DNA of 64,000 bases from assembly GCA_000004985.1 (NCBI GenBank), contig GG738850.1. One strand, given 5' to 3'. Below the pieces are notes generated by a model that was not told the DNA's origin, did not search any database, and was given only the letters and a program-made list of their open reading frames with translations. This DNA comes from Naegleria gruberi. Lineage: Eukaryota. Position numbers and translations under genes: made by a program. The first letter of the stretch is position 1, and every line of letters starts with the position of its first letter. Shown in pieces: positions 5,436-24,838 of the stretch.

Positions 5436-6629
5436 ATGCAACAAGTTCATTTATGGCTCCGTGATGAAGTTAAACCATTCGAACAACGTACAGCTTTGAC
5501 TCCTTCCGATGCTGAAAAGTTGATCAAGGAATTTAATTTTAAAATTACAGTTGAAAAATCTGTTACTCGTGCCTTTGATGATGAAGAATATGTTAAAGTT
5601 GGTTGTCAATTAGTTGAATCAAATTCATGGATTACTCAAGCACCAAAACTTGAAGAAAATGATAATTTCTATATTTTGGGATTGAAAGAATTACCACTCG
5701 GAAATACTCAATTAGGTGATATTCAAGTTCCACACTTACTTTCTCAACGTCATATTTTCTTTGCTCACTGTTTCAAGAGACAATCTGATTGGAAAGATAC
5801 AATGAGTAGATTTGTTCAAGCTGAACCAAGACCAGGTCAAATTCTTGACTTGGAATTCCTTAATTTAGATAATGGTAGAAGAGTTGCTGCTTTTGGTTAT
5901 GCAGCTGGTTTTAATGGAATGGCAATGGGTTTACTTACTTATTGTAAACAAAAATTACATTCAAACGATTTGGAAGTTTTGAATGAAATTGTTAAACCAT
6001 TCAAGAATAGAACTGAACTTGTTAATCATATTAAGGATTTACTTTCTAAATTAGATCATACACCAAAATGTTTAGTTTTAGGAGCATTGGGTAGATGTGG
6101 AAGTGGAAGTGTTAAATGTGCTGAATTATGTGGAATTCCAGAAAGTCATTTAATTAAATGGGATTTGAATGAAACCAAAGCAGGTGGACCATTCCCACAA
6201 TTATCAACAGATGTTGATATTCTAGTTAATGATATTTATTTGAGTGGTGAAATTAAACCATTCTTAACAATGGAAATGGCACAAAAAGGTGATCGTAGAA
6301 TGAGTGTTTTCATTGATGTTTCATGTGATGTTACAAATCCATTCAATCCATTCCCAATTAATAATCAAGTTACAACATTTGATAGACCAGTTAGAAGAGT
6401 TGATAATACTAATAATCTTCCATTAGATGTTATTGCAATTGATCATTTACCAACAATGACTCCACAAGAATCATCAGATGAATTCTCAAATGCTTTGGTT
6501 ACTTATTTGGCTGAATTGAGAAATGTTAATTTTTCAAATGAACAAGGTGAAACTGAAGGTATTAGAGTTTGGTTACGTGCAAATCAATTATTTGAAAAGA
6601 AAGTTCAAGAATTTAAACAAGAATTGTAA
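5436..6629 (+). CDS. LYS1: Saccharopine dehydrogenase (NAD+, L-lysine-forming), LYS1-type, single exon, 397 aa
   Basis: N-terminus MQQVHLWLRDEVKPFEQRTALTPSDAEKLIKEFNFKITVEKS is co-linear with fungal Lys1 and with the animal LKR domain. The alanine-dehydrogenase/PNT-like fold is uninterrupted. Confidence 0.8.
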   Translation: MQQVHLWLRDEVKPFEQRTALTPSDAEKLIKEFNFKITVEKSVTRAFDDEEYVKVGCQLVESNSWITQAPKLEENDNFYILGLKELPLGNTQLGDIQVPHLLSQRHIFFAHCFKRQSDWKDTMSRFVQAEPRPGQILDLEFLNLDNGRRVAAFGYAAGFNGMAMGLLTYCKQKLHSNDLEVLNEIVKPFKNRTELVNHIKDLLSKLDHTPKCLVLGALGRCGSGSVKCAELCGIPESHLIKWDLNETKAGGPFPQLSTDVDILVNDIYLSGEIKPFLTMEMAQKGDRRMSVFIDVSCDVTNPFNPFPINNQVTTFDRPVRRVDNTNNLPLDVIAIDHLPTMTPQESSDEFSNALVTYLAELRNVNFSNEQGETEGIRVWLRANQLFEKKVQEFKQEL

Positions 6630-6758
6630 ATTGCTATAAAAAAACATTAAAAAACCTTTTGAAAATTATCCAAATTCATTTTAATATGTTGCTGTCAAAT
6701 GTTCTTTCACCACTCTCATTTCAAATCCTTGTCAATTATAAATTCCATAAGATAAAAA

Positions 6759-9656
6759 ATGTCTTTTAATCAATTATTACCTCCCACACTAAAACCTAGA
6801 TCCTACAGTGCTACCAATTCTAAGAATGCTACACCTACTTCCAATACACCACTTTCACCTGTCATTACCATTGAAAATGATTCATCATCATTACCTTCAT
6901 CATCATCACAAGCAATGAATCAACAACATCAATCTAATACTACCACTACCACTACTACTACTCAACAACAACAACAACCAACTAGTGCACGTACAGGTCA
7001 TCGTCGATTACCCAGTTCCTTCCTATTACCTTCTACAGCAGCAGGAGTAGGAGGTGCAACTTCATCATCTTCACTTGCTATTTCTCCACTAACAGGTGCA
7101 AGTGCAAGTGTATCATCATCATCATCATCATTGAATAATAACAATTTATTAATGTCCAGTGGAACACCACAATCACCCTCTCCTAATACTACCTCCATGA
7201 TGATGATGTATCACTTTAATACCTCATCCAATTCTCTACTAGTTGGTACACCAGGTAGTACAACAACAAGAACAAGAACACCCAACAGTCCTCCAACCAA
7301 CAACAGCAACAATAATAATTCAACAGCATCACTATTAATTCATCAAGGTAATAGTAGTAATGTTGCAGGTGTTGCAGGTCAACAACAACAACAACAACAA
7401 CAACAACATCATCACTTTGTTCCTCCACTCATTCCACCAGTCTCTTTCAATGCACTATTCAATAATAATAATAACAACAACAACTCGACGGAAGAAAATA
7501 ACAAAATGATGAATGCTGGTGGATCATCATCAATAATTGGTCCACAACAGAGTGGTGGAATGACAACATCATCAAGTAGTGGAAATTTACTTTCCAATTC
7601 AGCAGGTAATTCATCATTTCAAAATCCAATTTCACACAATGTTGAATACTATCATGCTCATATGGCCATGTTTATAAAGAAAAAGTTTGAGGAAGAGGAG
7701 GAATATCTAATGTATTCATATCCGAATGAAATATCATCTCCCAATATACATATTAGATCATTAAAGGAATTGAGAGGTACATTACACTCTGTATTTGGTG
7801 AATGTAATGATATATTGAATGAACAAGTTAGATTTTGTTATTTAACACCAACTGGAAAGAGTGTTTCATCATCGTGGTGGAATGTTCATTCTAATACTAC
7901 TAATACTACTAATACTAATAGTGGCACAAATCATAATCCATTATCATCTGCATCCTCTTCTCATCAACATCAACATATTCATCAGGGTTCCATTGATAGC
8001 ATTTCAAGTCCAAATCAATCGACACCACTTCCATCATCTGTAAATTCAGCAACTTCTGCACTTCCTAATACTGATACCATTAATTCGACAAGTTCAATTC
8101 ATCATCATCATCAATCCATTCCATCCAATATATCATCATCCAATAATCCTACTATTACTACTACAATTGGTGTTAATGATACAATTTCACAAAAACCATC
8201 TCTATTAGAATTTTTACAAGAAAGTAAAAAGATTGAAAATGCAACAGAATTATCAAATGTTATTCAATTGAGAGAAACTATTGAAAAGAATAAGAGACCA
8301 CTTATTGTAACATACAAAATATTGAAACAGTATATATTTTTATTATATTTACCAATTCCAACTGATTACAATTATGGAAATGTAATGAAATCAGTTTATG
8401 AACAATATGTAAATGAATTATTTGAATTTTTAGATTTTATTTATCAAGATGTTGAAGAAATTATTACAAATATTTCAGATTATCAAAGTCAATTAGATAC
8501 AATATTTAATAGATTTTTTGAAATGGTATTTCATGATAGAGATTTTAGTTTTGTAAATAGTTTTCAAGATGGTTTTGTTAAATTTCAACCTTCTTTTCAT
8601 ATTTCTCAAACTATTGATGCTGAATTATCAAATTTAGAAACAATTATGAAAGAAGATTGTTTTAATATTGGAACTTGTTTAATTTATAAGGGTTTATTAC
8701 AATTATCTCATTTACCTAAAAATATTACAAAACAAGTAATTAGATATTTAACACATTTTAATATTATTCATAGAGCTCAAGATTCACCTGAAATGGTTAT
8801 TATTGAAAAGGTTTTTATTAAGGAAAATTCAAATCCTTTCGATTTATTAACAATTAATGAAACATCAGGTGATAATGGTTATGATTATTTATTATCTGTT
8901 ATTACTCAAGGTGAAAAAGTAATGTGTAGTGTTTTATATGCAAAGAGATATCCACAATCTTATTATGAAGGTGATTTATATTATGTTGATGAAATGAGAA
9001 CTTGTTTATTACAATTAGAAAAGAAGGGAATTTTTAGTCAACTTAGAGGTCAATTTAAAACTTCACATTCTTTAGCTAATGTTTTTTCAATTCCAACTGT
9101 TTCTGTAACTGCAAATACAGAATCATCAAGAGATAGTACAAGTGGTCTAGTTGGCTTAGGAAGTTTTACTTCAAATAGTTTTTATGGATTTGGACTAACA
9201 AATGATCATACAAGTCCAACAAGTTCTAATACTTCTAGTTCTTCTAGTAGTAATTCGAGTAATGAAACAATTATTGGATCTAACATGAAACATTTCGTCA
9301 CACAAGGACCTTACAATGTCTTGTTAGGTTATGTTGTCCATTCAAATTCGAATGGTGTAATTTTATATCATAATAGCAGTAATCCAGCTATTGCATCAGT
9401 TTTTTCTCTGAAATGTCAAGTTGTTAGACAAGTATTACAAAGTAAGAGATCAATGAGTGATGACCCTATCGTAGAATTTGGTATTCACATTGATCAGAAG
9501 GTGCCACTTCCAAACAATACTATTGGACATATTGGATATTGGATTTGTGGTAGAATGAATGATATGCTGGATGAATTTTATGTTTGTTATGAAGATTCTA
9601 TTCCTCAAGATGTTGTGGAATTATCTTATAGATTGTACAGTAGACTTTACATTTAA
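6759..9656 (+). CDS. Hypothetical protein, 965 aa. The N-terminal ~450 aa is S/T/N/Q/H-rich low complexity and the C-terminal ~500 aa is globular, possibly a tri-longin-type fold.
   Basis: Long uninterrupted ORF with the codon bias of neighbouring genes. It contains poly-T, poly-Q and poly-N runs. The C-terminal half has non-repetitive composition. The longin assignment is a guess from secondary-structure-like periodicity only. Confidence 0.45.
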   Translation: MSFNQLLPPTLKPRSYSATNSKNATPTSNTPLSPVITIENDSSSLPSSSSQAMNQQHQSNTTTTTTTTQQQQQPTSARTGHRRLPSSFLLPSTAAGVGGATSSSSLAISPLTGASASVSSSSSSLNNNNLLMSSGTPQSPSPNTTSMMMMYHFNTSSNSLLVGTPGSTTTRTRTPNSPPTNNSNNNNSTASLLIHQGNSSNVAGVAGQQQQQQQQQHHHFVPPLIPPVSFNALFNNNNNNNNSTEENNKMMNAGGSSSIIGPQQSGGMTTSSSSGNLLSNSAGNSSFQNPISHNVEYYHAHMAMFIKKKFEEEEEYLMYSYPNEISSPNIHIRSLKELRGTLHSVFGECNDILNEQVRFCYLTPTGKSVSSSWWNVHSNTTNTTNTNSGTNHNPLSSASSSHQHQHIHQGSIDSISSPNQSTPLPSSVNSATSALPNTDTINSTSSIHHHHQSIPSNISSSNNPTITTTIGVNDTISQKPSLLEFLQESKKIENATELSNVIQLRETIEKNKRPLIVTYKILKQYIFLLYLPIPTDYNYGNVMKSVYEQYVNELFEFLDFIYQDVEEIITNISDYQSQLDTIFNRFFEMVFHDRDFSFVNSFQDGFVKFQPSFHISQTIDAELSNLETIMKEDCFNIGTCLIYKGLLQLSHLPKNITKQVIRYLTHFNIIHRAQDSPEMVIIEKVFIKENSNPFDLLTINETSGDNGYDYLLSVITQGEKVMCSVLYAKRYPQSYYEGDLYYVDEMRTCLLQLEKKGIFSQLRGQFKTSHSLANVFSIPTVSVTANTESSRDSTSGLVGLGSFTSNSFYGFGLTNDHTSPTSSNTSSSSSSNSSNETIIGSNMKHFVTQGPYNVLLGYVVHSNSNGVILYHNSSNPAIASVFSLKCQVVRQVLQSKRSMSDDPIVEFGIHIDQKVPLPNNTIGHIGYWICGRMNDMLDEFYVCYEDSIPQDVVELSYRLYSRLYI

Positions 9657-9706: not shown

Positions 9707-12694
9707 TTAAAAACGAATGGCATCCTTTGTCAAACTGTTTACAATGTGAAGAATGAGCTTGATGGTCTTGATATCACTTGGCTTACCACGTTCAAGAATG
9801 ATTGGATGTTTAGCAGCCAAATGTTCTCTAATACCTTCCAAGATTGGAGCTGAAAATTGGGAAATGGCTGGATCAATTGGGTTGATATGAATAATAACTC
9901 TTTCCAACCAAGACAATTTAACATCAGTTTGTTCAGTAATATCATAAGCCAATTGTTGAACAAGGGTAAGAAGGATTGGTTGAGAAATTGGAATATCAAC
10001 TTCAAACAAACGTGGATCAATAACACTACACAACCAAACTAATAAACGTAAATCAGCCTTTTCCAAAACAAGTGAGAAAACTTCCTCAAATCTTTGGTTT
10101 TCAACCAAGTTCAAAAGTTGCTCCTTGGAAATGTCTCCATTATTATTGCTTGTATTTGTTGCTGTTTGTTGAACAGCTGGCATGTTTTGAGCAACATTCT
10201 TCAATTCTTGTCTGATAGCTTCAACAGTTGAATCATTGACTTCCTTACAGTATTGCTTCAATGGTGATTTAACCAATTCATCCATTCCTCTTTCAAAGGT
10301 CTTACTAATTTGTTCAAACATTCTTCTGCATGATGTTTCAAATGAAGGAAGAACTGTAGACTTGAGAACTGTTTGGAAACTATCTTGGATAACCTTCTTA
10401 ATAGATCCTGAATCAGAAGTATCAGTCAATGATTGGGTAAGAGCGTCATTGACAACATCAGACATGTTATCGGTGAGTGAGTCAAGAACAGATTGAGAAA
10501 TTTCATCTGGTAAATCATTAGTAATGGCAGAAGAAATAGTTTCAATCAACTCCTTTTGTCTAGTTCTTTCTTCAGAGAGTCTTGTCAATCTTTCCTTTTC
10601 AATACGCTTGTAAAGTTGTTCATATTGTCTTTCAGTTTGGGTTTGAATCATTGTTTCCATTTGAGTAAGAATGCTTCTTTCCATTCTCTTCAATTCAGAA
10701 ATGAGTTCAAAATTAGAACCACTAGAAGCAGGTTGAGTAGGAGTGGCTTGAGGAACAGATGGATTAACTGGTGGAATAATATTTGGAGATTGACGAATAG
10801 CTACACCAGTATTAGTATTAGCAACAACAATTTCCTTTGAAGAGCTTGGTTGGTGGACTAAATCTGGCATTGGAATTGCAGTTTTAACTTGTTGGCTTAG
10901 AGCACAAATTTGGAAGTTTCTAATATTCAACAAGTGAATACCACTGGTTTGTAAACAGAATAAACCAAAGTTAATACCAATAGTCATAGCAACAAGACTA
11001 ACAATTGGATATCTACAATCAAATTCAGTGATGAAATCAAAATGTGGATGATCTTCTTGTTCAGTCAAAGGTGTCTTGTTTAAGCGAAGAGTGAACAATA
11101 CTGGATATTGCAAATTTGAAACAAACAAAGCAGATGCTGTAGAATCAAGTTCAACATTATTGATAGAAACCTTTTCATCAAACTTTTCAGAGGTTTCTGG
11201 TCTAATTGATACTTGTTGAACAAGTTCAATGTCCAACTTTGGTGATAAATACCACAAACAAATATCAAAATTGTTTTGTGAAGATGTAATAAAGTATCTT
11301 TCAATATTAGTCTCAGTGCCTGAGCAAAATTGGATATTAATCAATTCGTTATTGTAAATATTGGCTGATTTTACAAGTGTCATGTTTGTTCTTCTATCCC
11401 AAATGTAAATATTACCAAATGATGAAATGCAGGCAAGATACTTTCCATCACTAGAGAAAGATAAATCGGTAATTGATTCATTTTCAGCAAACTCATTAGA
11501 CAATACACGAATACCACGCATAGTGTGAATATTATCATTATCTAATTCAATCAAGTTGTTATACATTGCTAATTGATCAACATCAAGCAAAATTAATTGG
11601 TTATCACTAGTAATAGCACATAACTCCTTATCTGATTGTGGAGCCCACAAAATTCTTCTAAAGAATCTATGTGATTGATCAGAAGAAAATGTTAAATGGA
11701 CCAATTTAGCATATCCTACTTGATCTTCCTTAGGGTTTCGTAAATCGTTTGGATGGATTTTTTCATCAGTTTCAATAATTTTCCACACAATCAAAGATCT
11801 ATCTCTAGAAACAGATGCCAATTTCAAATTTACAGAACATTGTAAATCGGATACATATTGTTTGTGTCCCTTCAAAAATACTTTCTTTCCAACCTTTCTA
11901 CTAACAACACGAATAGCTCCTCCTTTCAAACTCCAAACCATATAGTCATCCAAAATTCCTATACATTTACCATTTGTGAAAATTTGGTCGCTTACATAAG
12001 GTGTAATACCTTTAATACTGGCCAATTGTTTTCTTTCTTTCTTAGCATCAAGTGAGGATGTCACGTAGGTATAAGCCTTCTTATCAATTGGACCTGTAAT
12101 GAATGGATCAATCATAGATTGTGGATTTGTTACATATTTTTGTATGGAGGAAGAAGATGGAGAGGTAGAACCATTATTAATTACATTGCTGCTTGATAAA
12201 CTTGTTGGGGAATGGGAAGGTGAATTATTATTAACATCAACTTCAGATGGAGAAGTTGGGGAAAGTTGTGAAGTATTAGCTTGATTTAATATATACTCGG
12301 TTCTAGCCTTGTGAGAACTAATTGGTTTAGATTCTGGGACTGGGGTATCTTGTCTTGTAATTGTATTTCCGCTAACAGTTGTATTAGTGGTAGGTGGAAT
12401 TGATTCTTCTGATGGTGGTGTTGATTGTCCATTGTTATTTTGTAACTTTTTAATTTCTTCAAGAATTTGTGATTCATCAAACATTCCTCCTTCTCCCATC
12501 ATAACCATTGAAGGATCCATCATCATGTGTGGATATGGTTGCATAGGTTGCATTGGTTGCATTGGTTGCATAGGATGAGGTGGATAGGCGAACATTGGAG
12601 TTTGATGAGGAAGTTGTTGTTGTGGCTGCGATGTTGTATTTTGTTCATTAGCCATTTGAAGGCTTTTTAAAAGATCTGTTGGTAATTGATTCAT
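9707..12694 (-). CDS. WD40 beta-propeller protein with a Met/Pro/Gln-rich N-terminus, Ser-rich linker and helical C-terminal domain. The architecture resembles EDC4/Ge-1 (enhancer of mRNA decapping 4).
   Basis: 995-aa single ORF. It has a PMQPMQPMQPMQ repeat, a WD-repeat region (LIVWKI, GHKQYVSDLQ and similar), a coiled-coil segment (ELKRMERSILTQMETMIQTQTERQYEQLYKRIEKERL) and then an alpha-helical tail. It lies convergent with the upstream gene, whose stop is 50 bp away. Confidence 0.45.
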   Translation of the reverse strand: MNQLPTDLLKSLQMANEQNTTSQPQQQLPHQTPMFAYPPHPMQPMQPMQPMQPYPHMMMDPSMVMMGEGGMFDESQILEEIKKLQNNNGQSTPPSEESIPPTTNTTVSGNTITRQDTPVPESKPISSHKARTEYILNQANTSQLSPTSPSEVDVNNNSPSHSPTSLSSSNVINNGSTSPSSSSIQKYVTNPQSMIDPFITGPIDKKAYTYVTSSLDAKKERKQLASIKGITPYVSDQIFTNGKCIGILDDYMVWSLKGGAIRVVSRKVGKKVFLKGHKQYVSDLQCSVNLKLASVSRDRSLIVWKIIETDEKIHPNDLRNPKEDQVGYAKLVHLTFSSDQSHRFFRRILWAPQSDKELCAITSDNQLILLDVDQLAMYNNLIELDNDNIHTMRGIRVLSNEFAENESITDLSFSSDGKYLACISSFGNIYIWDRRTNMTLVKSANIYNNELINIQFCSGTETNIERYFITSSQNNFDICLWYLSPKLDIELVQQVSIRPETSEKFDEKVSINNVELDSTASALFVSNLQYPVLFTLRLNKTPLTEQEDHPHFDFITEFDCRYPIVSLVAMTIGINFGLFCLQTSGIHLLNIRNFQICALSQQVKTAIPMPDLVHQPSSSKEIVVANTNTGVAIRQSPNIIPPVNPSVPQATPTQPASSGSNFELISELKRMERSILTQMETMIQTQTERQYEQLYKRIEKERLTRLSEERTRQKELIETISSAITNDLPDEISQSVLDSLTDNMSDVVNDALTQSLTDTSDSGSIKKVIQDSFQTVLKSTVLPSFETSCRRMFEQISKTFERGMDELVKSPLKQYCKEVNDSTVEAIRQELKNVAQNMPAVQQTATNTSNNNGDISKEQLLNLVENQRFEEVFSLVLEKADLRLLVWLCSVIDPRLFEVDIPISQPILLTLVQQLAYDITEQTDVKLSWLERVIIHINPIDPAISQFSAPILEGIREHLAAKHPIILERGKPSDIKTIKLILHIVNSLTKDAIRF

Positions 12695-12948: not shown

Positions 12949-14745
12949 TTACTTCTTCTCAAAGGAAATCAGTAATGGTTCTCTTGGTCTCAAAGTTACA
13001 TGATTATCGAGATGTAATTTGTAATTTGGTGATATTGAAAATTTGTAATGTTTAACTAAAAGTGCTAAACAGAAACAACTTTCAATCTCTGCAAAATATC
13101 TTCCCTGACAAATACGATTTCCAATTCCAAAACCAGAGAATGCAAATGGATTTTGATGAATTTCAATATGTGGATTGAAAATTGAGAGTGGAATTGTTTG
13201 AGATTTGAATTCTTCAATTGTAATACTTTGAGCAATAGTTGAATCTTTCCTTTTAAGGAATCTTTCTGGAATGAATTCATTAGGTTGAGGCCAATATCTT
13301 TCATCTTTGTGAATATCTAACCATGAAGCAGCTATTTGAGTTCCTTTTGGAATTGTAATATCTTTCCATTTAAATGTTTTTGTTACTTGTCGAGCAGCAA
13401 ATGCCACAACTGGATATAATCTTAAACTTTCTTTAACAACTGCTCTCAAATAATCCATTCTTCCCTCTTGATAATCTTCAAAATCAAATGTTTCCTTTCC
13501 ATATAAAGTTGGATAATCATGATCAATGAATTTATGAATTCGATCTTGAGCATCCTTATCAGTAGCTAATGAATATAATATAAATCCTAATGTTCTTGCA
13601 GTTGCTATTTAATAATTAATGTTTTTAAAGATGAATATTCATTGTAAACTTACTTTCATGTCCAGCAACAAGGAAAATGAAACAATTTGAAATAATTTCC
13701 TCATCAGTCATACTTTCATCTTTACTCCAATTTTCTCTTGCATTTAATAAGAGAGATAGAATATCAGAGTGAGGAGTTTCTTCTTCTTGATTTTTAGTTT
13801 TACGTTCATTAATAATATCATTAATGGATTTAGTGAATTGATTGGAAATTAATTGAGCTGGTTTATGTGGAAATATTCCAACATGTTGTCTAATCCATTT
13901 AGGAAATATATTGTAAACTGGAAGAATTCCAAATAATTTCTGAGTTTGAACAGTTAAACTATCTTTTTGATTAATATTAAAAGAATTGAAATCATAATTA
14001 AATCCAGCCAATCCAATAACCTCTACAAATATTTTACAATAATACATTACAATATTATATCATTCAATATTATATATCAATATTAAACATCAATATATTC
14101 CAATTAATACTAACCTAAAGTAAGATTTGAAAAATCCACTTCAATATTTCTCATTAAAAGATTCTTTTCAATATTTGGTATTAAAAATCTATTCATACAA
14201 TCAATTGTAACTTTTGCAACAATTTTCAATGATTGAGGAGCAAAAGCAGGATCCAATAATTTTCTCTGACGATGCCAAAATTCATAATCATTTTCAACAA
14301 ATATATTTGATCCACCAAATAGTTCAATAACACTTTCTTTCAAATCAGGTAATTTGTTTGTAATCTTTCTAGTTGCCATTTCTTTTAGAAATAATGAATC
14401 ACCAATTACAATCATTCCAGTACTAACAATTCCCAATACAACTTTATACATTTTATCATTTCCACTCTCTTTCATAAATCTTTCAAATATTAGAGGTGAT
14501 AAATTCTCTCCAAATCTTGTTCCCCACTCTGATGGTATTAAAAACTTTGGTAGAAATTGACATAGAATAGGTGGTATGAATTGACATCGTCCAATTTTAA
14601 TAAATTCATACTCTTTACATATTATTAAATATTTACAATATAAATAAAGCAGAAATAGTATTATTAATATTAAAAAACATGTCAATGATAAATAAATAAT
14701 ATCTAACAAGGCGGAGGAGGTGGATGATAGTAATGTACTCATCAA
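12949..14745 (-). CDS. Cytochrome P450 monooxygenase, 3 exons: 14745..14115, 14022..13654, 13604..12949 (about 551 aa)
   Basis: Exon 1 has an N-terminal membrane anchor. The I-helix AGHETT is split by a 49-nt intron (GTAAGT...AAATAG). The K-helix is ESLRLYP and the heme loop is FSGFGIGNRICQG. Intron 1 is 92 nt (GTTAGT...TTGTAG). Exon lengths preserve the reading frame across junctions. Confidence 0.85.
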
Positions 14746-16513: not shown

Positions 16514-17196
16514 TGGCTGGATCTAAACAAAAGAAGCGTGTTACTACCAATGCCACTATAATGAGAAATCATTATATTGCAGTTGGTGTTGTTAATGTAT
16601 GTTGTTGAAATATGTTCATTCCGAATCAAATAACTCTTTTATATTAAATTACATCATGATGATGGTGATATAAATGATATAATCAATCAATGGATTAATA
16701 GTTAATTTATTTAATTTATGTATTATATAATTTTGCAAACATTTCGACATTTGAATGGATTGCCTTTATTTCTCTTCTTCTAGGATATGGATTTTGTCTC
16801 AACTCTCTATATAAATATTCCAAGCCAGTTGAATATACTACAAGTGAAGGAAAAGTAGTAATGGATGTTAATGATTTAAGTGATGTTGCAGGATCACTAA
16901 CTGAATATACATTTGATATTATTTATGTTGAATGTTTTGTTCAATTAACTTCAATTATTTCTAATTGGTTCTATTTATTATTATTAATCATTCCTGGATT
17001 TGCTATTTTCAAATTATATAATTCAATTATTAAACCTTATTTATCAATGAATAAGGCTCAACAAGAATATGCCAATTCTCAACAACAACCTGAAATGTCA
17101 GATAAGAAAAAGAAGAAAATGGAAAGACTTGAAAAGAAAAATCAACAAAATATGCAAAGAATGAGAATTAGACCAAATTCAAATGATGATGAATAA
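16514..17196 (+). CDS. TMEM208/SND2-like small ER membrane protein, at least 2 exons: about 16514..16598 and about 16787..17196
   Basis: Exon 1 is MAGSKQKKRVTTNATIMRNHYIAVGVVN followed by a GTATGT donor. An AT-rich intron follows. The acceptor is CTTCTAG at about 16786. Exon 2 encodes two TM helices and a basic tail, KKKKKMERLEKKNQQNMQRMR, that parallels the TMEM208 C-terminus. The exact donor phase is unresolved. Confidence 0.4.
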
Positions 17197-17359: not shown

Positions 17360-18810
17360 TTGACTGATAGTATTATTGATCACTTGAAATTACTTCATCC
17401 GAATATTCAAATTCATTCAAACCCAATTTCAAATAACAACAACAAACAACCAACCTTATCAAATAATAACAATAACAACACTAACAATTTAAAATCAAAG
17501 CCTTCTTCATCGTCATTACATCACAACAACACCACCACCACTACTAGTACTTGTATAAAACAATCAAACAATAATATTTCTAACATACCGATCAAGAGGA
17601 AAGTGAGGAATCAAGAGGAAGAACATTCTAATGATGATGGAAAATCAAAGATTGGTACATCTTCTAATACTAGTAGTAGTAGTAAGACTCCTATAAACAA
17701 TAATACATCCAATAGTAATAGTAATACTCTAAATTCATCGACCACATCCGAAAAATCAATATCACCAAACACCTTCTCCATTAAAATTACCAACAATGAA
17801 ACTAAATTAATGAGTAAGATTCCTAAAATCACATCTAACAGTACAACTACAGTTCTCAATAATAATAGTACTAATAATGGTAGTGTTGGAAGTAGTAATC
17901 AACTCAAAAGAACTATTTCACAAGTCTCCTCACCAACCACTACTACTACTACAAGTACTCCAAAGAGATTTGTTAAACTTATTGAACCACCATCTCATAT
18001 TCAGAATGAAAGACTTTCAAATAGTCATCATCATCATCATGAAAAGAATGTATTATCACCTAAACCAAATAGCAACAATACACCCTCGCCTTCAAATCTA
18101 GATGTTAGACCAAAGAGTGCAGTTTCAATTCAACATATTGTTAATACTAATATAAATAATATAAGGCCAAGTGATGGTGCTCCCCTCATTCCTAACAATA
18201 ATATTCATAATAATATTAATAATAACATTAACAGTAGTAGTAGCAATAAATAGTAGTAATAATAAGTAGCAACAATCATAATATTTCAAATTCTACTTCT
18301 AATAGTAGTACAACAACAACAACAACCACATCAATTCTTCCAAGCACTGCTGGTAATAACAATTATGCAAAATCAGCCTTAGTTAATTTGAAGGCTACTG
18401 CTATTCATCCTAAACCAATTCTTCCAAGATCAACTACTACCACATCTCCTCCACCTACTAGTGCTGTTAATACATTGCCTCATCCTTATTCCCCACCTTC
18501 AAGTCCTACTACTTTTATCATCATCATCACCCTAATGGTGGAACAATTTATTCAACTTCTCCCTATCATCCACCACCACCACATCCAATTTATCATCATC
18601 ATCACCATCCACCACCAATAGTACCACTCTATTCACAACCTCATCCAATGCCTCAATCACCACATCACCACCATCCTCCTGGTGTTTATTATGCACCTGT
18701 TTATACTACACCATCTCCTACCTATCCTATTATGACTTCTCCCTATCATCATCCACCACCACCACCTACAACAACCAATCATCATTCTCACCACCATCAA
18801 CAACAGTAGA
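17360..18810 (+). CDS. Low-complexity S/T/N/P/H-rich coding region (hypothetical protein), possibly one gene spanning two ORF-track frames
   Basis: ORFs 17360..18253 and 18388..18621 plus a downstream HHPPPPP-rich frame share composition and codon bias. There is no recognisable domain. The gene model is uncertain. Confidence 0.3.
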
Positions 18811-18852: not shown

Positions 18853-21800
18853 ACTACAAAAAATGTCTCAACCAAGTCCTGTAAGTGATTGTATAATTTG
18901 AATCAATTGTTGTATTAATGATGATCGGATTCAATAAAGAGAAATCAAGATACAATTTCTAGTTCAATCATTTTGACAATTATTGGAGAAGGAGAATTTA
19001 AAGTAATAATTGATGATCGTTCTTTTTTAAATGAATTTAATCAATCACAACCACAACCACAACAACAACAACAACAATTATCATCATCAATAAATGAAGA
19101 TGAAAAGAAAAAGAAGAGAAAATCATTTTCTCAATCATTTTCAGAATCATTTACTCAAGTTTTACATCAAACTACTTCTGGAATTACAAAAGGATTATCA
19201 ACTTTTACTTTTAAAACGAGACATGTTCAATTGAGAACAAATGAATTATTAATTTATGCTGTTAAAGGTTTGTTTTAATATTTGTTTTTAATAATAATTA
19301 AATATTTTATTACAATGAATTACAATAAAAAAATAGATAATTCCAAAAATAGAAAATTAAAAGCTAACATTTCACTTATCAAGGCAATAGTTAGTAAAGA
19401 TACACTTTACAAAAATTGTATTCGTATTGAAACTCAAGATAAAATTGTTCATATTCAAATAGATTCAGAAGATACAAGACAAAAATGGTTAAAATCAATT
19501 ACAGAACAAACACAAATTCTATCGAAAAGAAAAGAAGAAAATATAATTGCATCACTCTCTTCAAATTCTTTAATTTCATTAGACAATGAATATACTATTA
19601 ATAATATTAATAGTGGTGGTAGTAGTGAACAATTATTTAATAACAAATCATTGAGAGGTTCAATTGTTGATAGAGAACATGAGGAAACAAGTGAAATGAT
19701 TCAAAATTTTATTAATGAACTAAATAATTTGGATCCTAAAAAGTATTTTAATCCTGCATCAAATTTAAGTTCAAATCCTTCATCTTCTAAAAGACGTCAC
19801 AACAAGTTGAAAAGTTTAACTGAAATTTCAGGATTAAATAATGATTCACTTCATGGTATTAAATTTACTAAAAATGATGATTCTAATAATAATAATAGTG
19901 GTAATAATACTAATAATAAGAATAATGGTGAAAATAATGAACAAGATAATGGTATTTTAAAAGATAATGATCAAGATTTAAATAATCATGTTAAAGATCA
20001 ATTATCAATTTTAACAAGTGAATTTTCACATTTGAATAATTTTACATTTATAGGTGGATTAGCCCATTTAACTTTAATTGGTAATAGAATTATGGAAAAG
20101 GCATCTATTCAAGTTAATACTCAATCAATTTTAAACATGTCAGGTGGTTCACAAATATTAAAACAAGGTTACTTATTAAAAGCAGGTCCAAATTCACATC
20201 AACCATGGAAGAAACGTTATTGTGTTTTAACTGAATCATGTGAATTTAGATATATGAGTAAAATTGGTCAATCACCAAAAGGTTTATTTTCATTACAAGG
20301 TACTTGGGCATCACGTATTAATAGTAATGATATTGATGATAATGATGATATTGATATTAACAATGATATTAAGAATAATACTAATAATAATACTATTACA
20401 AATAATTCAAATAATAATAATAATAATACAAGTATAGATTCAGATACAAATCATAATGATGAAAATTTCAATGAACAATTTTTAAATATTCATTCAAATT
20501 CATATCAATTTCAAATTGAAACAAGTGAAAGAATTTATAAATTTCAAGCACCTTCTTATCAATCTTTAAAAAGTTGGTTAAATTCACTTGAACAAGTTGG
20601 TTGTAAAGTTAAAATTGATGAAAATGATGGAATTGTAAAAACAGGTTATTTAATGAAAGAGAGAACAACTAATCATTGGAATAAGAGATTTATAACACTG
20701 ACGGAATCTAATGAATTAAAATATTATGGAAAAAACAAATCAAATCGTTCCTTAAAAGGTACTATTCAACTTGAAGATTCTTATATTACTAAAATTATTG
20801 AAAAATATGAACAACAAAATATTGTAACAAGTACAATTGAATCTTTAACTGATACTATTATGTTAACTAATCATCATACTTTCAATAATAATTCTAATAA
20901 TACTAATAATAATAATAATAATAGTAATAATGGTAATAATAATAATTATATTATGAAATATAAATTTAAAATTCATACACCTGAGAGAAATCACATATTT
21001 GAAGCTGAAAATGAAATGGAACTTGATCATTGGATTCAAATAATTTCCAAATATGGTTCAATTCAAAGAAATGAAAATGATCCAAAACCAATTTTTAAAA
21101 ATCGTCTCGCCAAATACTATCTCAAAACAACAGAACAAGTTATTTTGGAAAGACAAGAAAAGCTACAGGAATACATTGTTAGTGAAGATAGTTTGAGAAG
21201 TAAATTGGAGAGAAATAAGAATAATGCTTCATTTAGATTAAATAATTCAAGTTTTCTTAGTAGTAATAATACTAGTTCAATTAGTATTCATTCAAATAAT
21301 GTTTCAACCAATGCCATGAATAATGGAGGTGGTGATAATAATCAACATCATCAATTATTAACAGTTCAAACAGCAACTGGAAATTATAGAAAACAACGTA
21401 ATAGTAGAGCTTATTCTAAATCTGAAACAAGTTTATTGAATCATCATTATAATCAAACAAAGAGTTTATTGAATTTGAAACCAGGTGAAACACCTCCACC
21501 ACCAACAAGTCCAACATTTTCTCTATTATCATCAATTTCACATAATGATGAACATAATCATTCTAATCATTTAATATCACCTTCATCACCTTCATTGAAT
21601 GTTTCATTGATTGCACATGTTCCAGAGGATGAATTTATTTCAGATGATGAAATTGATGAAAATCTTGATATTCAAGTATTGAAAATTGAACCAATTGAAA
21701 AATACATTCCAAATACTAATAATAATACTAATAATACCACTATCACTACCACTACTACTACTAATAATAATAATAGCAGTGAACAACAAGTGGTTGTTAA

Positions 21801-23505
21801 TACTACTGCTGTTGAATTACAACAACCATCAATTGTTATTGAAAATAGTGATGATGATAAACAATTAATTGTAAATAATGAAAAAGTACCTTTACAATCA
21901 TTAACAGTATACTCACATAATAATATTGGTGTTAGTGATTCATCAGATGAATTCCAAATTATTGTTGAAGATTTAACAATGAATGAACATGAAATTGAAA
22001 CTATTAATAATATTGATAATACTGATAATATGAGTGATAATATTTCAAATAGATCTTTATCTCAACAATATTTAACTAATGATGATGATATGAATGATAT
22101 GAATGATAATCAACCATCTCAACAATATGATTCAACAAGTGAATTATTAGTGAATCAAAAAACTCATCAACATGATTCAATTGATATTCAAATTGAACCA
22201 CCATTAAATGATGAACATTCCAATGAAATGGAAATTGATTATTCCTATAATACATCAAATCCAATTCAAAGTCAAGGATATTATACTAGTTATCAAATAA
22301 TACCCAACTTGAAACCATCTATTGTAATAGATAATGGATCAGGTATATTAAAATCAGGATTTGCTAATCAAGATTTTCCAATTTGTGTTTTTAATAACAT
22401 GATTGGTCGATTGAAACAATATTCAGCAACGAGAGGTGTTGGAATTGGAGGAATGAGTGGAATGGGTGGAATTGGAGATCAAGGTAAAAAATTATATTTT
22501 GGAGATGGAGCTCAATCATTGAGAGGTGTTTTACAATTATCATATCCAGTTGAAAGAGGAATTGTAAAGAATTTTGATGATTTTGAAATGATGTTACAAT
22601 ATACTCAAGATTGTTTAAAATTGGAAACATTTAGTGAAAATCCATTATTAATAACTGAATCAACAATTAATCCAAAACAAAATAGAGAAAGAATTACACA
22701 AATGATGTTTGAAACATTTGATGTACCATATCTATATATGGCTAAATCACCTGTTTTATCTTTATTTGCACATGGTTATACAACTGGTTTAGTTTTAGAT
22801 TCAGGTGATGGTGTTACACATACTGTTCCAATTTATGAAGGTTATTCTTTACCACATGCTGTTCAAAGATTAGAACTTGCAGGTAAAGATTTAACAAATT
22901 ACATGTTAAATTTATTGAATCAATCTGGTCAATCAAAACCATTTCAATCTCAAAATTCTTCATCTCATATTGAAATTGTTAGATGTTTAAAAGAAGATTT
23001 ATCTTTTGTTAAATCATTTAATGATTCACATAATTCATCATCATCAAATACTATTAACAATAATAATTCTTCATCATTACAAGTTAATTATGATTTACCA
23101 GATGGTACAAGTATTAAAGTTGGAGAGGAAAGATTTAAATGTCCAGAATTATTATTTAATCCATCAATTGTTAATGGAGGAAGTGAAATGTTGGGAGTTC
23201 ATGAATTATGTAAAAAAACAATTTATGAATGTGATATTGATTTGAGAAAGACTTTGGCTTCAAATATTTTCCTTTCAGGTGGTTCAACTAAATTTAATGG
23301 ATTTCAATCAAGATTACAAGATGAAATACAAAATTTATTACCTTATTCTAATAAGGTTAAAGTTAAAGGTTCGAAAGATGTTCAATTTTTACCATGGATT
23401 GGTGGTTCAATCATTTCAAAGATTTCACGTTTCCCTTACGATTGTATTAGTAGACAAGAATATGAAGAAACAGGTCCATATTATTGTCATGTTAAATTTA
23501 TGTAA
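18853..23505 (+). CDS. Multi-domain protein with three PH domains plus a C-terminal actin-like domain (about 1500 aa). Exons: 18853..18870, 18940..19267, 19337..23505.
   Basis: ATG at 18853 gives MSQPSP, then donor GTAAGT at 18871 and acceptor AAAG ending 18939. PH1 is split by a 69-nt intron (donor GT at 19268, acceptor ATAG ending 19336), which restores ...LLIYAVK-D-NSKNRKLKANISL...DTRQKWLKSITEQ. PH2 is GYLLKAGPNSHQPWKKRYCVLTE..., PH3 is GYLMKERTTNHWNKRFITLTE...DHWIQIIS. The actin fold begins SIVIDNGSGILKSGFANQDFPICVF and includes LDSGDGVTHTVPIYEGYSLPHAVQRLELAGKDLT, DLRKTLASNIFLSGGSTKFNGFQSRLQDEI and WIGGSIISKISRF. Confidence 0.75.
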
Positions 23506-23536: not shown

Positions 23537-24838
23537 TTATTCCCATTCAGCATTTGTTTCCACTGCCCATTCATCCACAGTTGCTGTTTCACAAGTTATA
23601 ACAGATGGTGCAATCACTGAAATACTTCCTGTTATTACATTCTCTGCAATTTTAAATATATGAATAGAACCATCTGAACATCCAACAAATAATTGACTTC
23701 CATCATTGGACCAAATTAATGATTTTGGATTTTGAGCTTCCTTCTTTCTATTATTGAATGATTTTGAATTATTTTTTCCAATTAATTGATGATGAACTAT
23801 TGTTTTACTCTCCAAATCAATAGTACATAATATTCCATTACTTTGAAGCAATGATAACCAATATCTATTAGGTGAATAACACATATCTATACATGTAACA
23901 GGTTTAGTTTCTTTTTTTCCTTCTTCTGAATTTCCATAATAATCATATAAATTAGTATCATAACTATTTTTCAAACAACAATCATATAAATGTTTAAATT
24001 CACAAGGTTGTGTTGTTACTATAACTTCAATTAATTCAACCTTATTCAATGAACCAGCCAATGAAAAGAAACTTCCATCTGGTGTTAATAAAAATTTCTC
24101 ACCATCAAATTTTCCTTCCAAATTTGCTTGTGAAATTAATTTTGATTGATTTTCAACTTGCCACAATTTCATACAACCATCACTATTACCTAATGAAACA
24201 AATTGATAATTATCTGAAATTGGAGTTTCATTTTCACTAATTATACTATTACCATTTTCATCAAGAATAGCTTGAGTTTGACCTGCCCAATTTTTAATAA
24301 ATCTAACCATTTTAACAATATCTGAATGTGAATCTTTAGAATTTGAATTCAACTTTTTCAAACATTGACCACCACTAACACTCCACAATCTCATTGTATT
24401 ATCTCTTGATGATGATATAATTAGAGAACCATCTAATGAACAATCAATTGATAAAACACTATCTAAATGTCCATTTAATACTTTTTTACATTCAAATGTT
24501 TGCCAATTCCAAATTCTAATACTACCATCATTATAACTTGATATTATTGATTCACCACATATTGTTAGACATATATCTGTTAATTTAATTTCACTACTTT
24601 TAGACCAATTCGTTAATTGTCCTCTCATGACAAGTAATGTTTTTAAAGAATTATTATTATTATCATCAGTGGTAGTAGTAGTAGATGTTTGTATAATATC
24701 CCATAGCGTTATAATAGGATGATTTTTACTTGCTGTAACAAGTACATTATCATGTTTAGGAATAACATGAATAAAATCGATGGAGGAATTTTCAAGCCTT
24801 GTCAATGCTCTATGAAATTCAATACCAGTAGATGACAT
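23537..24838 (-). CDS. WD40-repeat protein, 433 aa, single exon
   Basis: Multiple WD-like blades are present (GHLDSVLSIDCSLDGSLIISSSRDNTMRLWSV, NDGSIRIWNW). The ATG is preceded by an A-rich leader. It is convergent with the PH-actin gene, with about 31 bp between stop codons. Confidence 0.7.
   Translation of the reverse strand: MSSTGIEFHRALTRLENSSIDFIHVIPKHDNVLVTASKNHPIITLWDIIQTSTTTTTDDNNNNSLKTLLVMRGQLTNWSKSSEIKLTDICLTICGESIISSYNDGSIRIWNWQTFECKKVLNGHLDSVLSIDCSLDGSLIISSSRDNTMRLWSVSGGQCLKKLNSNSKDSHSDIVKMVRFIKNWAGQTQAILDENGNSIISENETPISDNYQFVSLGNSDGCMKLWQVENQSKLISQANLEGKFDGEKFLLTPDGSFFSLAGSLNKVELIEVIVTTQPCEFKHLYDCCLKNSYDTNLYDYYGNSEEGKKETKPVTCIDMCYSPNRYWLSLLQSNGILCTIDLESKTIVHHQLIGKNNSKSFNNRKKEAQNPKSLIWSNDGSQLFVGCSDGSIHIFKIAENVITGSISVIAPSVITCETATVDEWAVETNAEWE

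Follow-up and report, generated by a model that had tools for sequence, protein, structure and literature searches.

To our knowledge, actin-fold proteins almost always stand alone. One locus of Naegleria gruberi (assembly GCA_000004985.1, contig GG738850.1) raises the question of whether there is a departure from this rule: does it encode, in a single gene, three PH domains followed by an actin-like domain, and if so, what might such a protein do? The locus occupies positions 18863–23505 of the 64,000-nucleotide (nt) stretch that was analysed, called the window in the following. We find that the PH domains and the actin-like domain are almost certainly encoded by one gene. The explanation as a whole, namely a single fused gene whose product would be a membrane-docked, tethered actin-like subunit, is given a probability of roughly 50%. 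It is rare for an actin-like domain to be joined covalently, and in a conserved manner, to a lipid-binding module, and the arrangement suggests a device for the direct coupling of membrane to actin.

The PH-actin gene, with all of its features, lies on the + strand and consists of three exons. Its coding sequence starts at 18863 and ends with the stop codon at 23503–23505; after splicing it comprises 4515 nt and yields a product of 1504 aa, close to the ca 1500 aa of the original prediction, which was made from the sequence before the present analysis. Exon 1 (18863–18880) contributes the start codon and six codons in all (MSQPSP), with a GTAAGT donor directly behind it at 18881. The spliced upstream ATG is required because the frame of exon 2 opens only from 18925 and contains no Met. 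Intron 1 (18881–18939, 59 nt, GTAAGT..AG) ends at the acceptor 18938–18939, the sole in-frame option. Exon 2 (18940–19267) encodes the N-terminal segment, the polybasic loop EKKKKRKSFS and the first half of PH1, and it aligns with the N-termini of Naegleria fowleri FDP41_000397 and of a Willaertia magna protein, and also with the upstream open reading frame (ORF) of a metagenome contig. Exon 3 (19337–23505) is a single exon of 4.17 kb without in-frame stops that carries the remainder of PH1, PH2, PH3, a helix, a linker, the actin-like domain and the stop codon.

Intron 2 (19268–19336, 69 nt, GT..AG, phase 1, 10% GC) joins ...LLIYAVK to (D)NSKNRKLKAN. The spliced junction, AVK-D-NSKNRKLKAN, agrees with the N. 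fowleri sequence TIKDSHQNRKLKAN, and a frame break directly after ..ELL[IV]Y..K is found also in N. fowleri, Naegleria lovaniensis and the metagenome contig. Independent support for this splice comes from PH1 (aa 81–173), which rises above its Pfam threshold only after intron 2 has been taken out (35.7 bits, E 1.3e-08). The proposal of two short introns, one of which splits PH1, thus holds, with the junction 19267/19337 exactly as predicted; the first junction lies at 18880/18940 and not at 18870/18940.

The locus is AT-rich (~25% GC) and abundant in Asn codons, and its open frame is the longest of the window (19279–23505, 1408 codons). For exon 3, ~130 in-frame stops would be expected and none occurs (log10 P = −59), and in the 356-codon interval between PH3 and the actin-like domain the count is 0 against 31 expected (log10 P = −14.1), while the other five frames contain 23–90. 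These statistics exclude a chance origin of the long ORF.

It is important to point out that the public N. gruberi annotation shows the actin-like end as a gene of its own. NAEGRDRAFT_35386 (EFC48626.1 / XP_002681370.1 / D2V3F0, 425 aa, named 'Actin') matches the whole of the actin part with 100% identity, and its first residue is the internal Met1080 (MEIDYSYN..., 22228–22230). A dictyostelid origin of the DNA, which its AT-rich and N-rich coding sequence might suggest, is ruled out by this identity. In N. lovaniensis, likewise, two adjacent genes are annotated, C9374_001992 (PH, 686 aa) and C9374_001993 (actin, 557 aa). Both annotations would fit a pair of genes that happen to share a frame, an upstream PH gene and, behind a promoter of its own near 22.2 kb, an independent actin-like gene of 425 aa. 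We consider this very improbable. The interval between PH3 and the actin-like domain, free of stops here (P ~1e-14), is uninterrupted also in N. fowleri, in W. magna and on the metagenome contig, and the N. fowleri and metagenome sequences that align at Met1080 lack a counterpart of this residue. The N. lovaniensis locus on PYSW02000014.1 (7944–12240 of the examined region) is distributed over frames 3, 2, 1, 3 and 1 with overlapping ORFs; this split may stem from assembly indels or unmodelled introns, and C9374_001992/001993 are probably one gene. As to NAEGRDRAFT_35386, its start is a Met inside the 4.2-kb ORF, and on that evidence it is a truncated model of the 3' end of the PH-actin gene. 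The separate actin gene near 22250 that the original prediction had named as the contrary outcome corresponds to the start of this truncated model (nt 22228). The NAEGRDRAFT_35386/D2V3F0 model consequently needs correction, and so do the split N. lovaniensis models.

The fused arrangement is found beyond N. gruberi as well, and all members recovered of what is a small family share this layout. The N. fowleri protein FDP41_000397 (1488 aa, 'PH domain-containing protein') aligns from its N-terminus to the final ...HVKFM, with an identity of 37% over 45% of the ORF by BLASTP and of 48% in a MAFFT alignment. Its aa 146–1488 lie in one frame, and its exon boundary, ..LLVYTIK/D, falls at the same place as in N. 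gruberi. The model starts at 6001, and aa 5 onward are aligned from 6145, from which a mini first exon is deduced in this species as well. The FDP41 gene models come from BRAKER1 runs that made use of RNA-seq (PMC6831594). The same PH-PH-PH-linker-actin architecture is seen in W. magna KAL9655741.1 (1493 aa). A second annotated isoform of this gene (ABK040_004969, 1162 aa) changes at the D-loop position (..KQYSAKG) to REEYQEYGPNYCHIKFM, with the actin core deleted; it could reflect alternative splicing to a PH-only protein or be an annotation artefact. On the metagenome contig, from JGI, one ORF of 1089 codons runs from part of PH1 through PH2, PH3 and a linker that is shorter to the actin domain, and the ORF upstream of it terminates at the equivalent boundary, ..LLIYSIK/G.

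A more distant case is a Logan contig derived from the SRA (SRR32607922_631949), in which the family-specific helix preceding PH2, PH2, PH3, a linker of ~100 aa, the motif KPIVIDNG... and actin exons follow each other on the same strand. Judged from this contig, a second, more divergent lineage carries the fusion. The contig (296–2645) represents a compact eukaryotic version, with the actin domain cut by several short introns. This domain keeps Gln137 and, at 52% identity, is closer to actin; the contig may represent the family in an older or a less derived form.

To delimit the distribution, a profile of the PH region was used in an exhaustive hidden Markov model (HMM) search of 1.84e9 cluster representatives. 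Three proteins were obtained at E<=1e-30, all of them family members: the Naegleria cluster representative, the W. magna protein and a 389-aa product of the SRR32607922 contig. None of these three strong matches is an animal protein, and the remaining matches, from 1.4e-30 downward, are generic PH-repeat proteins. Two metagenome scans likewise returned generic PH proteins only and no closer relatives. Protein searches by word index, made with the long ORF and also with a trimmed alignment of the PH region, gave 3 matches and 1 match, respectively; low-complexity words swamped them, the W. magna protein was missed, and no weight attaches to what they failed to find. The named hosts belong to the Heterolobosea, family Naegleriidae.

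Orthology is supported by the upstream gene order, EDC4/Ge1 (− strand), TMEM208, an uncharacterised low-complexity gene and then the PH-actin gene, which is common to N. gruberi, N. fowleri and N. lovaniensis. These comparisons also bear on the suspicion that the locus is an artefact or in decay, i.e. a chimeric assembly or a pseudogene created by accidental juxtaposition. Unexplained frame changes in the upstream neighbour could be taken as a sign of this, and nothing else points that way. The ORF is intact, architecture and synteny are conserved in at least four independent assemblies, and many residues are invariant in all domains, so that an artefact is effectively refuted by the cross-species conservation. 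The central claim of the original prediction, that one gene encodes three PH domains and a C-terminal complete actin fold, is thus borne out: the ORF is continuous, and the layout recurs in N. fowleri, W. magna, the metagenome contig and the distant SRA contig.

We now turn to the protein itself. Along the chain, PH1 is followed by a partly helical spacer, PH2, PH3, a conserved helical segment, an acidic tether and the actin-fold domain. In the spliced protein, the Pfam PH profile PF00169 matches three stretches with 96.9 bits (cut-off 25.1), as had been foreseen. PH1 (19162–19509) is interrupted by intron 2 and bears the polybasic loop. PH2 (aa 390–536, 20158–20598) is the best stretch; it has an N/D-rich loop insertion and the basic motif LLKAG..WKKRY. 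PH3 (aa 548–690, 20632–21060), with an N-rich loop insertion, is the third stretch and is matched also by PH_8 and PH_3. The exon-3 part of the N-terminal module, which includes only the second half of PH1, was modelled with AlphaFold2 (AF2) from an alignment of eight sequences. The overall predicted local distance difference test (pLDDT) score is 56.7, with block means of mostly 76–89 for PH2 and about 71–90 for PH3. Both are predicted to adopt the PH fold, a seven-stranded beta-sandwich capped by a C-terminal helix, and the domains are flanked by helices. The N-rich tracts had been taken for linkers between the PH domains. Not all of them are: two are instead long loops within the PH2 and PH3 sandwiches, disordered in the AF2 model.

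The most conserved stretch of the N-terminal module is beta1-beta2 of PH2, ILKQGYLLKAGPN.HQPWKKRYCVLTE. It contains the basic motif K-Xn-(K/R)-X-R in the form LLK397..W-K407-K408-R409-Y, which is invariant in the family and aligned with LLK..WKRRW of the cytohesins. Among solved structures, the nearest PH domains to PH2 are those of cytohesin-2 and cytohesin-3 (E 4e-5, with LLK...WK(K/R)R aligned), and PH3 resembles the PH domains of PLEKHA6 and pleckstrin.

After PH3 comes a conserved helical segment, DPKPIFKNRLAKYYLKTTEQVILERQEKLQEYIVSEDSLRSKLERNK (aa 697–743, 21079–21219), with many residues invariant across members according to the pattern KYYLKTTE.V.LERQEKLQEYIV.E..L..KL.RNK; AF2 predicts helices here at low to moderate confidence. 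The linker that follows (aa 744–1108, 21220–22314) is a low-complexity, S/T/N-rich acidic sequence of 365 aa with a net charge of about −34, in open frame. Its sequence is not conserved, while its length (362–407 aa), acidity and openness are retained in N. gruberi, N. fowleri and W. magna. Two short elements within it do recur. One is a proline motif, PGETPPPPTSP (21481–21513), with counterparts in N. fowleri and W. magna; the metagenome sequence keeps the linker prolines, P831 and P836 being invariant, and the corresponding sequence of the Logan contig is LTPPPIPKR. The other is the motif Y-x-[VTM]-S-N-[PA] at the end of the linker, just before the actin-like domain.

The actin-like domain (aa 1109–1504, 22315–23502) is matched by the Pfam profile PF00022 at aa 1109–1503 with 341.6 bits (cut-off 27, E 6.6e-102), over profile positions 5–409 of 410. 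Actins from the PDB score ~351 bits over the full length (chain residues 7–373). The outcome of no PH or actin match in such an HMM search, raised along with the original prediction, did not occur. The actin motifs listed there, DNGSG, LDSGDGVTHTVPIYEGY and WIGGSI...SRQEYEE, are all present, and both phosphate loops are found, DNGSG(I)LK and DSGDGVTH. A Foldseek search with the model of this domain returned actins only, with a TM score of 0.46, and adds nothing beyond the sequence evidence.

How close is the domain to actin? Over aligned columns, its identity is 47% to rabbit alpha-actin, 41% to Arp1, 39% to Arp2 and 31% to Arp3; the actins sampled are 74–94% identical to one another. In a neighbour-joining tree with 300 bootstraps, in which the Arp sequences were verified against PDB chains, the five close members of the family form one clade with 100% bootstrap, and the conventional actins form a separate clade, also with 100%, that excludes them. 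Grouping with Arp1, Arp2 or Arp3 has bootstraps of 31–52% with one sequence per Arp class. By this tree, the domain is a divergent actin-like clade outside the conventional actins that is unassignable to Arp1, Arp2 or Arp3. An affinity to Arp1, suggested by the shared motifs GGST.F.G, PELLF.P and EYEE.G, was considered and dropped, as it is unsupported by the tree and the identity is 41% to Arp1 compared to 47% to actin.

The individual residues show which parts of the actin fold have been kept. In all five close members, K18, D154, D157, K213, E214, G302, R177, N111, D286 and D288 are retained, and in four of the five also H161 (N in W. magna) and R290. The catalytic Gln137, present in the actins and in Arp1–3, has given way to other residues throughout the five (S, S, S, G or P). 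His73 is replaced by R or K, and Lys336 by Q. In place of the D-loop (residues 40–50) there is a longer insert that varies, also in length, between species. At the cleft of the barbed face, T351 has become R in four members and Q in W. magna, and M355 is D in the three Naegleria sequences and L and N in the other members. The C-terminus, ..RKCF in actin, reads ..VKFM. Identity to actin is 63–74% for the nucleotide site, 43–55% for the barbed face, 35–54% for the lateral contacts and 9–27% for the D-loop, a profile that is Arp-like. The domain had been called complete, which is right for the fold and the ATP-binding loops but not for Gln137, His73 and the D-loop, which are not actin-like.

On the basis of these features, we tentatively propose a mechanism in which a phosphoinositide-docked, tethered actin-like subunit would engage filament ends or actin-binding proteins and link them to the membrane; we hold it to be a possibility that falls short of an even chance. 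The PH module would dock the protein on a phosphoinositide-rich or acidic membrane, as suggested by the canonical K..K-K-R-Y basic motif of PH2, the most cytohesin-like of the three domains, and by the polybasic loop of PH1. The long flexible tether would let the actin-like domain reach the cortical actin network. This domain is predicted to bind ATP, given that the two phosphate loops are retained together with K18, D154, K213, E214 and G302. Since Gln137 is the residue that positions the hydrolytic water in actin, its replacement by S, G or P leads us to predict that the domain hydrolyses ATP poorly. Contacts to conventional actin or to actin-binding proteins could be made through the partly conserved barbed-face and lateral surfaces. 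Since the D-loop and the pointed face are not conserved, the domain would be expected to serve as a membrane-anchored end subunit, cap or seed and not as a normal internal subunit of the filament. The phosphoinositide-targeted actin nucleus or cap suggested in the original prediction is a reasonable hypothesis. The N-terminus of actin sits on the filament surface, which would make an N-terminal tether sterically compatible with filament contact. The net effect would be the coupling of actin structures to patches of membrane, for example at pseudopods or food cups.

The main alternative is that the gene is indeed fused, with an actin-like domain that acts as a nucleotide-binding scaffold for some other membrane complex, in the manner of nuclear Arps or Arp10/11, the PH module providing localisation only. 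We judge this somewhat unlikely. It would account for the loss of Gln137 and of the D-loop, for filament-contact residue sets that are 34–55% identical to actin in the five close members, as in Arps, and for the position of the domain in a clade of its own outside actin. However, the similarity to actin equals that of Arp1 and Arp2, which contact actin or form actin-like filaments, and a number of contact residues are kept, namely K113 (or R), D244, D286, D288 and Y/F169, with R290 in four of the five. The conserved proline motif of the tether also suggests a link to the actin machinery, and it may bind profilin or SH3 proteins.

A more far-reaching variant was also considered, in which the protein is a self-contained, membrane-tethered nucleation seed. 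Here, the PH domains would bring the protein to phosphoinositide patches, the conserved helix after PH3 would pair two hydrolysis-dead, ATP-locked domains that mimic an actin dimer, like Arp2-Arp3, and the proline motif would feed in profilin-actin. This is improbable on the sequence features at hand. If true, the principle of nucleation would differ from those of Arp2/3, the formins and the WH2 nucleators, and it would exist in Naegleria, the pathogen N. fowleri among them, but not in animals.

Returning to the tethered subunit that engages actin at the membrane, several points weigh against it. On the actin side, the charged substitutions T351R and M355D fall at the cleft of the barbed face, and the filament-contact surfaces (34–55% identity, as above) are no better conserved than those of Arps that do not copolymerise. 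The AF2 model of the actin domain, from 32 sequences, is poor (pLDDT 62.5) and gives no structural support for a specific binding mode. In the tree, each Arp class is represented by a single sequence, and actins and Arps of Naegleria are not included. On the membrane side, the full basic motif is found in PH2 only, with part of it in PH3, and several of the ligand residues of Grp1 are not conserved in PH2; most PH domains, moreover, do not bind phosphoinositides specifically. Finally, an additional internal start could give rise to a free actin-like protein alongside the fused one.

The surroundings of the gene were also inspected. Immediately upstream (17360–18809, + strand) lies the low-complexity gene mentioned above, N/S/T-rich and then P/H/Y-rich, with its stop 54 nt before the PH-actin ATG. 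Its coding pieces are in three frames without obvious GT..AG introns, which could be due to small unrecognised introns or to frameshift errors of the assembly; it is probably the counterpart of an uncharacterised 867-aa gene upstream of the N. fowleri orthologue. Farther upstream, a homologue of TMEM208/SND2 ends at 17193 (+ strand), and a homologue of the decapping enhancer EDC4/Ge1 occupies 9707–12694 (− strand). Between these two there is extra material that is missing from the corresponding interval in N. fowleri, including a cytochrome P450 fragment (12949–13458, − strand) and several ORFs without family match. Downstream, a 433-aa WD40-repeat gene (23537–24838, − strand) converges on the PH-actin gene, with 31 nt separating the two stops. 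The place of this neighbour is taken by an RCC1-repeat gene on the + strand in both N. fowleri and N. lovaniensis, and synteny therefore ends directly behind the PH-actin gene.

One further fragment was encountered in a 7.1-kb contig from ENA (ERZ4903137 k141_3586466), whose terminal ORF (6291–7010) is 79% identical to the last 239 aa of the actin-like domain. The contig otherwise consists of tightly packed genes of bacterial type, for PPDK, its kinase/phosphatase regulator, a beta-eliminating lyase and a TPR protein, and the homology begins abruptly at the start of the ORF. This is either a chimeric assembly or a fragment of a host gene in an amoeba-associated bacterium.

As to the significance of the protein, the crawling and feeding of Naegleria rely on actin alone, and food-cup trogocytosis by N. 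fowleri drives a brain infection that is nearly always fatal. The PH-actin protein is present in this pathogen, and if it is important for cortex or food-cup dynamics it could constitute a lineage-specific target. In addition, the loss of Gln137 in an otherwise intact ATP site would provide a natural actin-like domain, predicted to be 'ATP-locked', for the study of nucleotide-state effects in the actin family. A search of a literature library and of supplements returned no relevant paper on the locus tags, on PH+actin fusions in Naegleria, on filactin-like fusions or on orphan Arps with PH domains, and the fusion is missing from the Dictyostelium actinome paper. The layout is thus apparently undescribed, and the orthologues are deposited as uncharacterised proteins.

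Among known systems, the closest in overall plan is filactin, Fia of Dictyostelium discoideum, which the original prediction had named as an example of an N-terminally extended actin. In both, an actin-fold domain stands at the C-terminus, after an N-terminal module for targeting or interaction. The likeness holds for this N-terminal extension but not for the actin domain itself, which is conventional in filactin and divergent here. The extension of filactin carries filamin-type Ig repeats, whereas a Pfam analysis of the full PH-actin protein finds no filamin domain and three PH domains instead. The hosts differ as well, Amoebozoa in one case and Heterolobosea in the other.

The actin-like domain, in turn, is best compared with Arp1, Arp2 and Arp3. 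It shares with them a full-length actin fold, intact phosphate loops, a divergent pointed face and D-loop, and a partly conserved barbed face, and with 47% identity it is about as distant from actin as they are (53% for Arp1, 48% for Arp2 and 39% for Arp3). Arp1–3 keep Gln137, however, while the close members of the PH-actin family are without it, and the Arps are stand-alone subunits of complexes, whereas here the domain is covalently fused to a predicted membrane-binding module. For PH2 in that module, the cytohesin/Grp1 PH domain is the nearest parallel: the Lys of beta1 and the W-K-(K/R)-R-(Y/W) of beta2 are aligned with PH2, in what is a weak match (E 4e-5). The Grp1 loop GGGRVK is replaced by GPNSHQP, and the PH-actin protein has no Sec7 domain. 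Finally, beta-spectrin and the tails of class I myosins illustrate how a PH or PH-like lipid-binding domain can be paired with an actin-binding domain. The relation to the PH-actin protein is one of analogy and not of homology: the logic of combining lipid binding with engagement of actin is alike, but in place of a CH domain or a motor, the PH-actin protein would use the actin fold itself.

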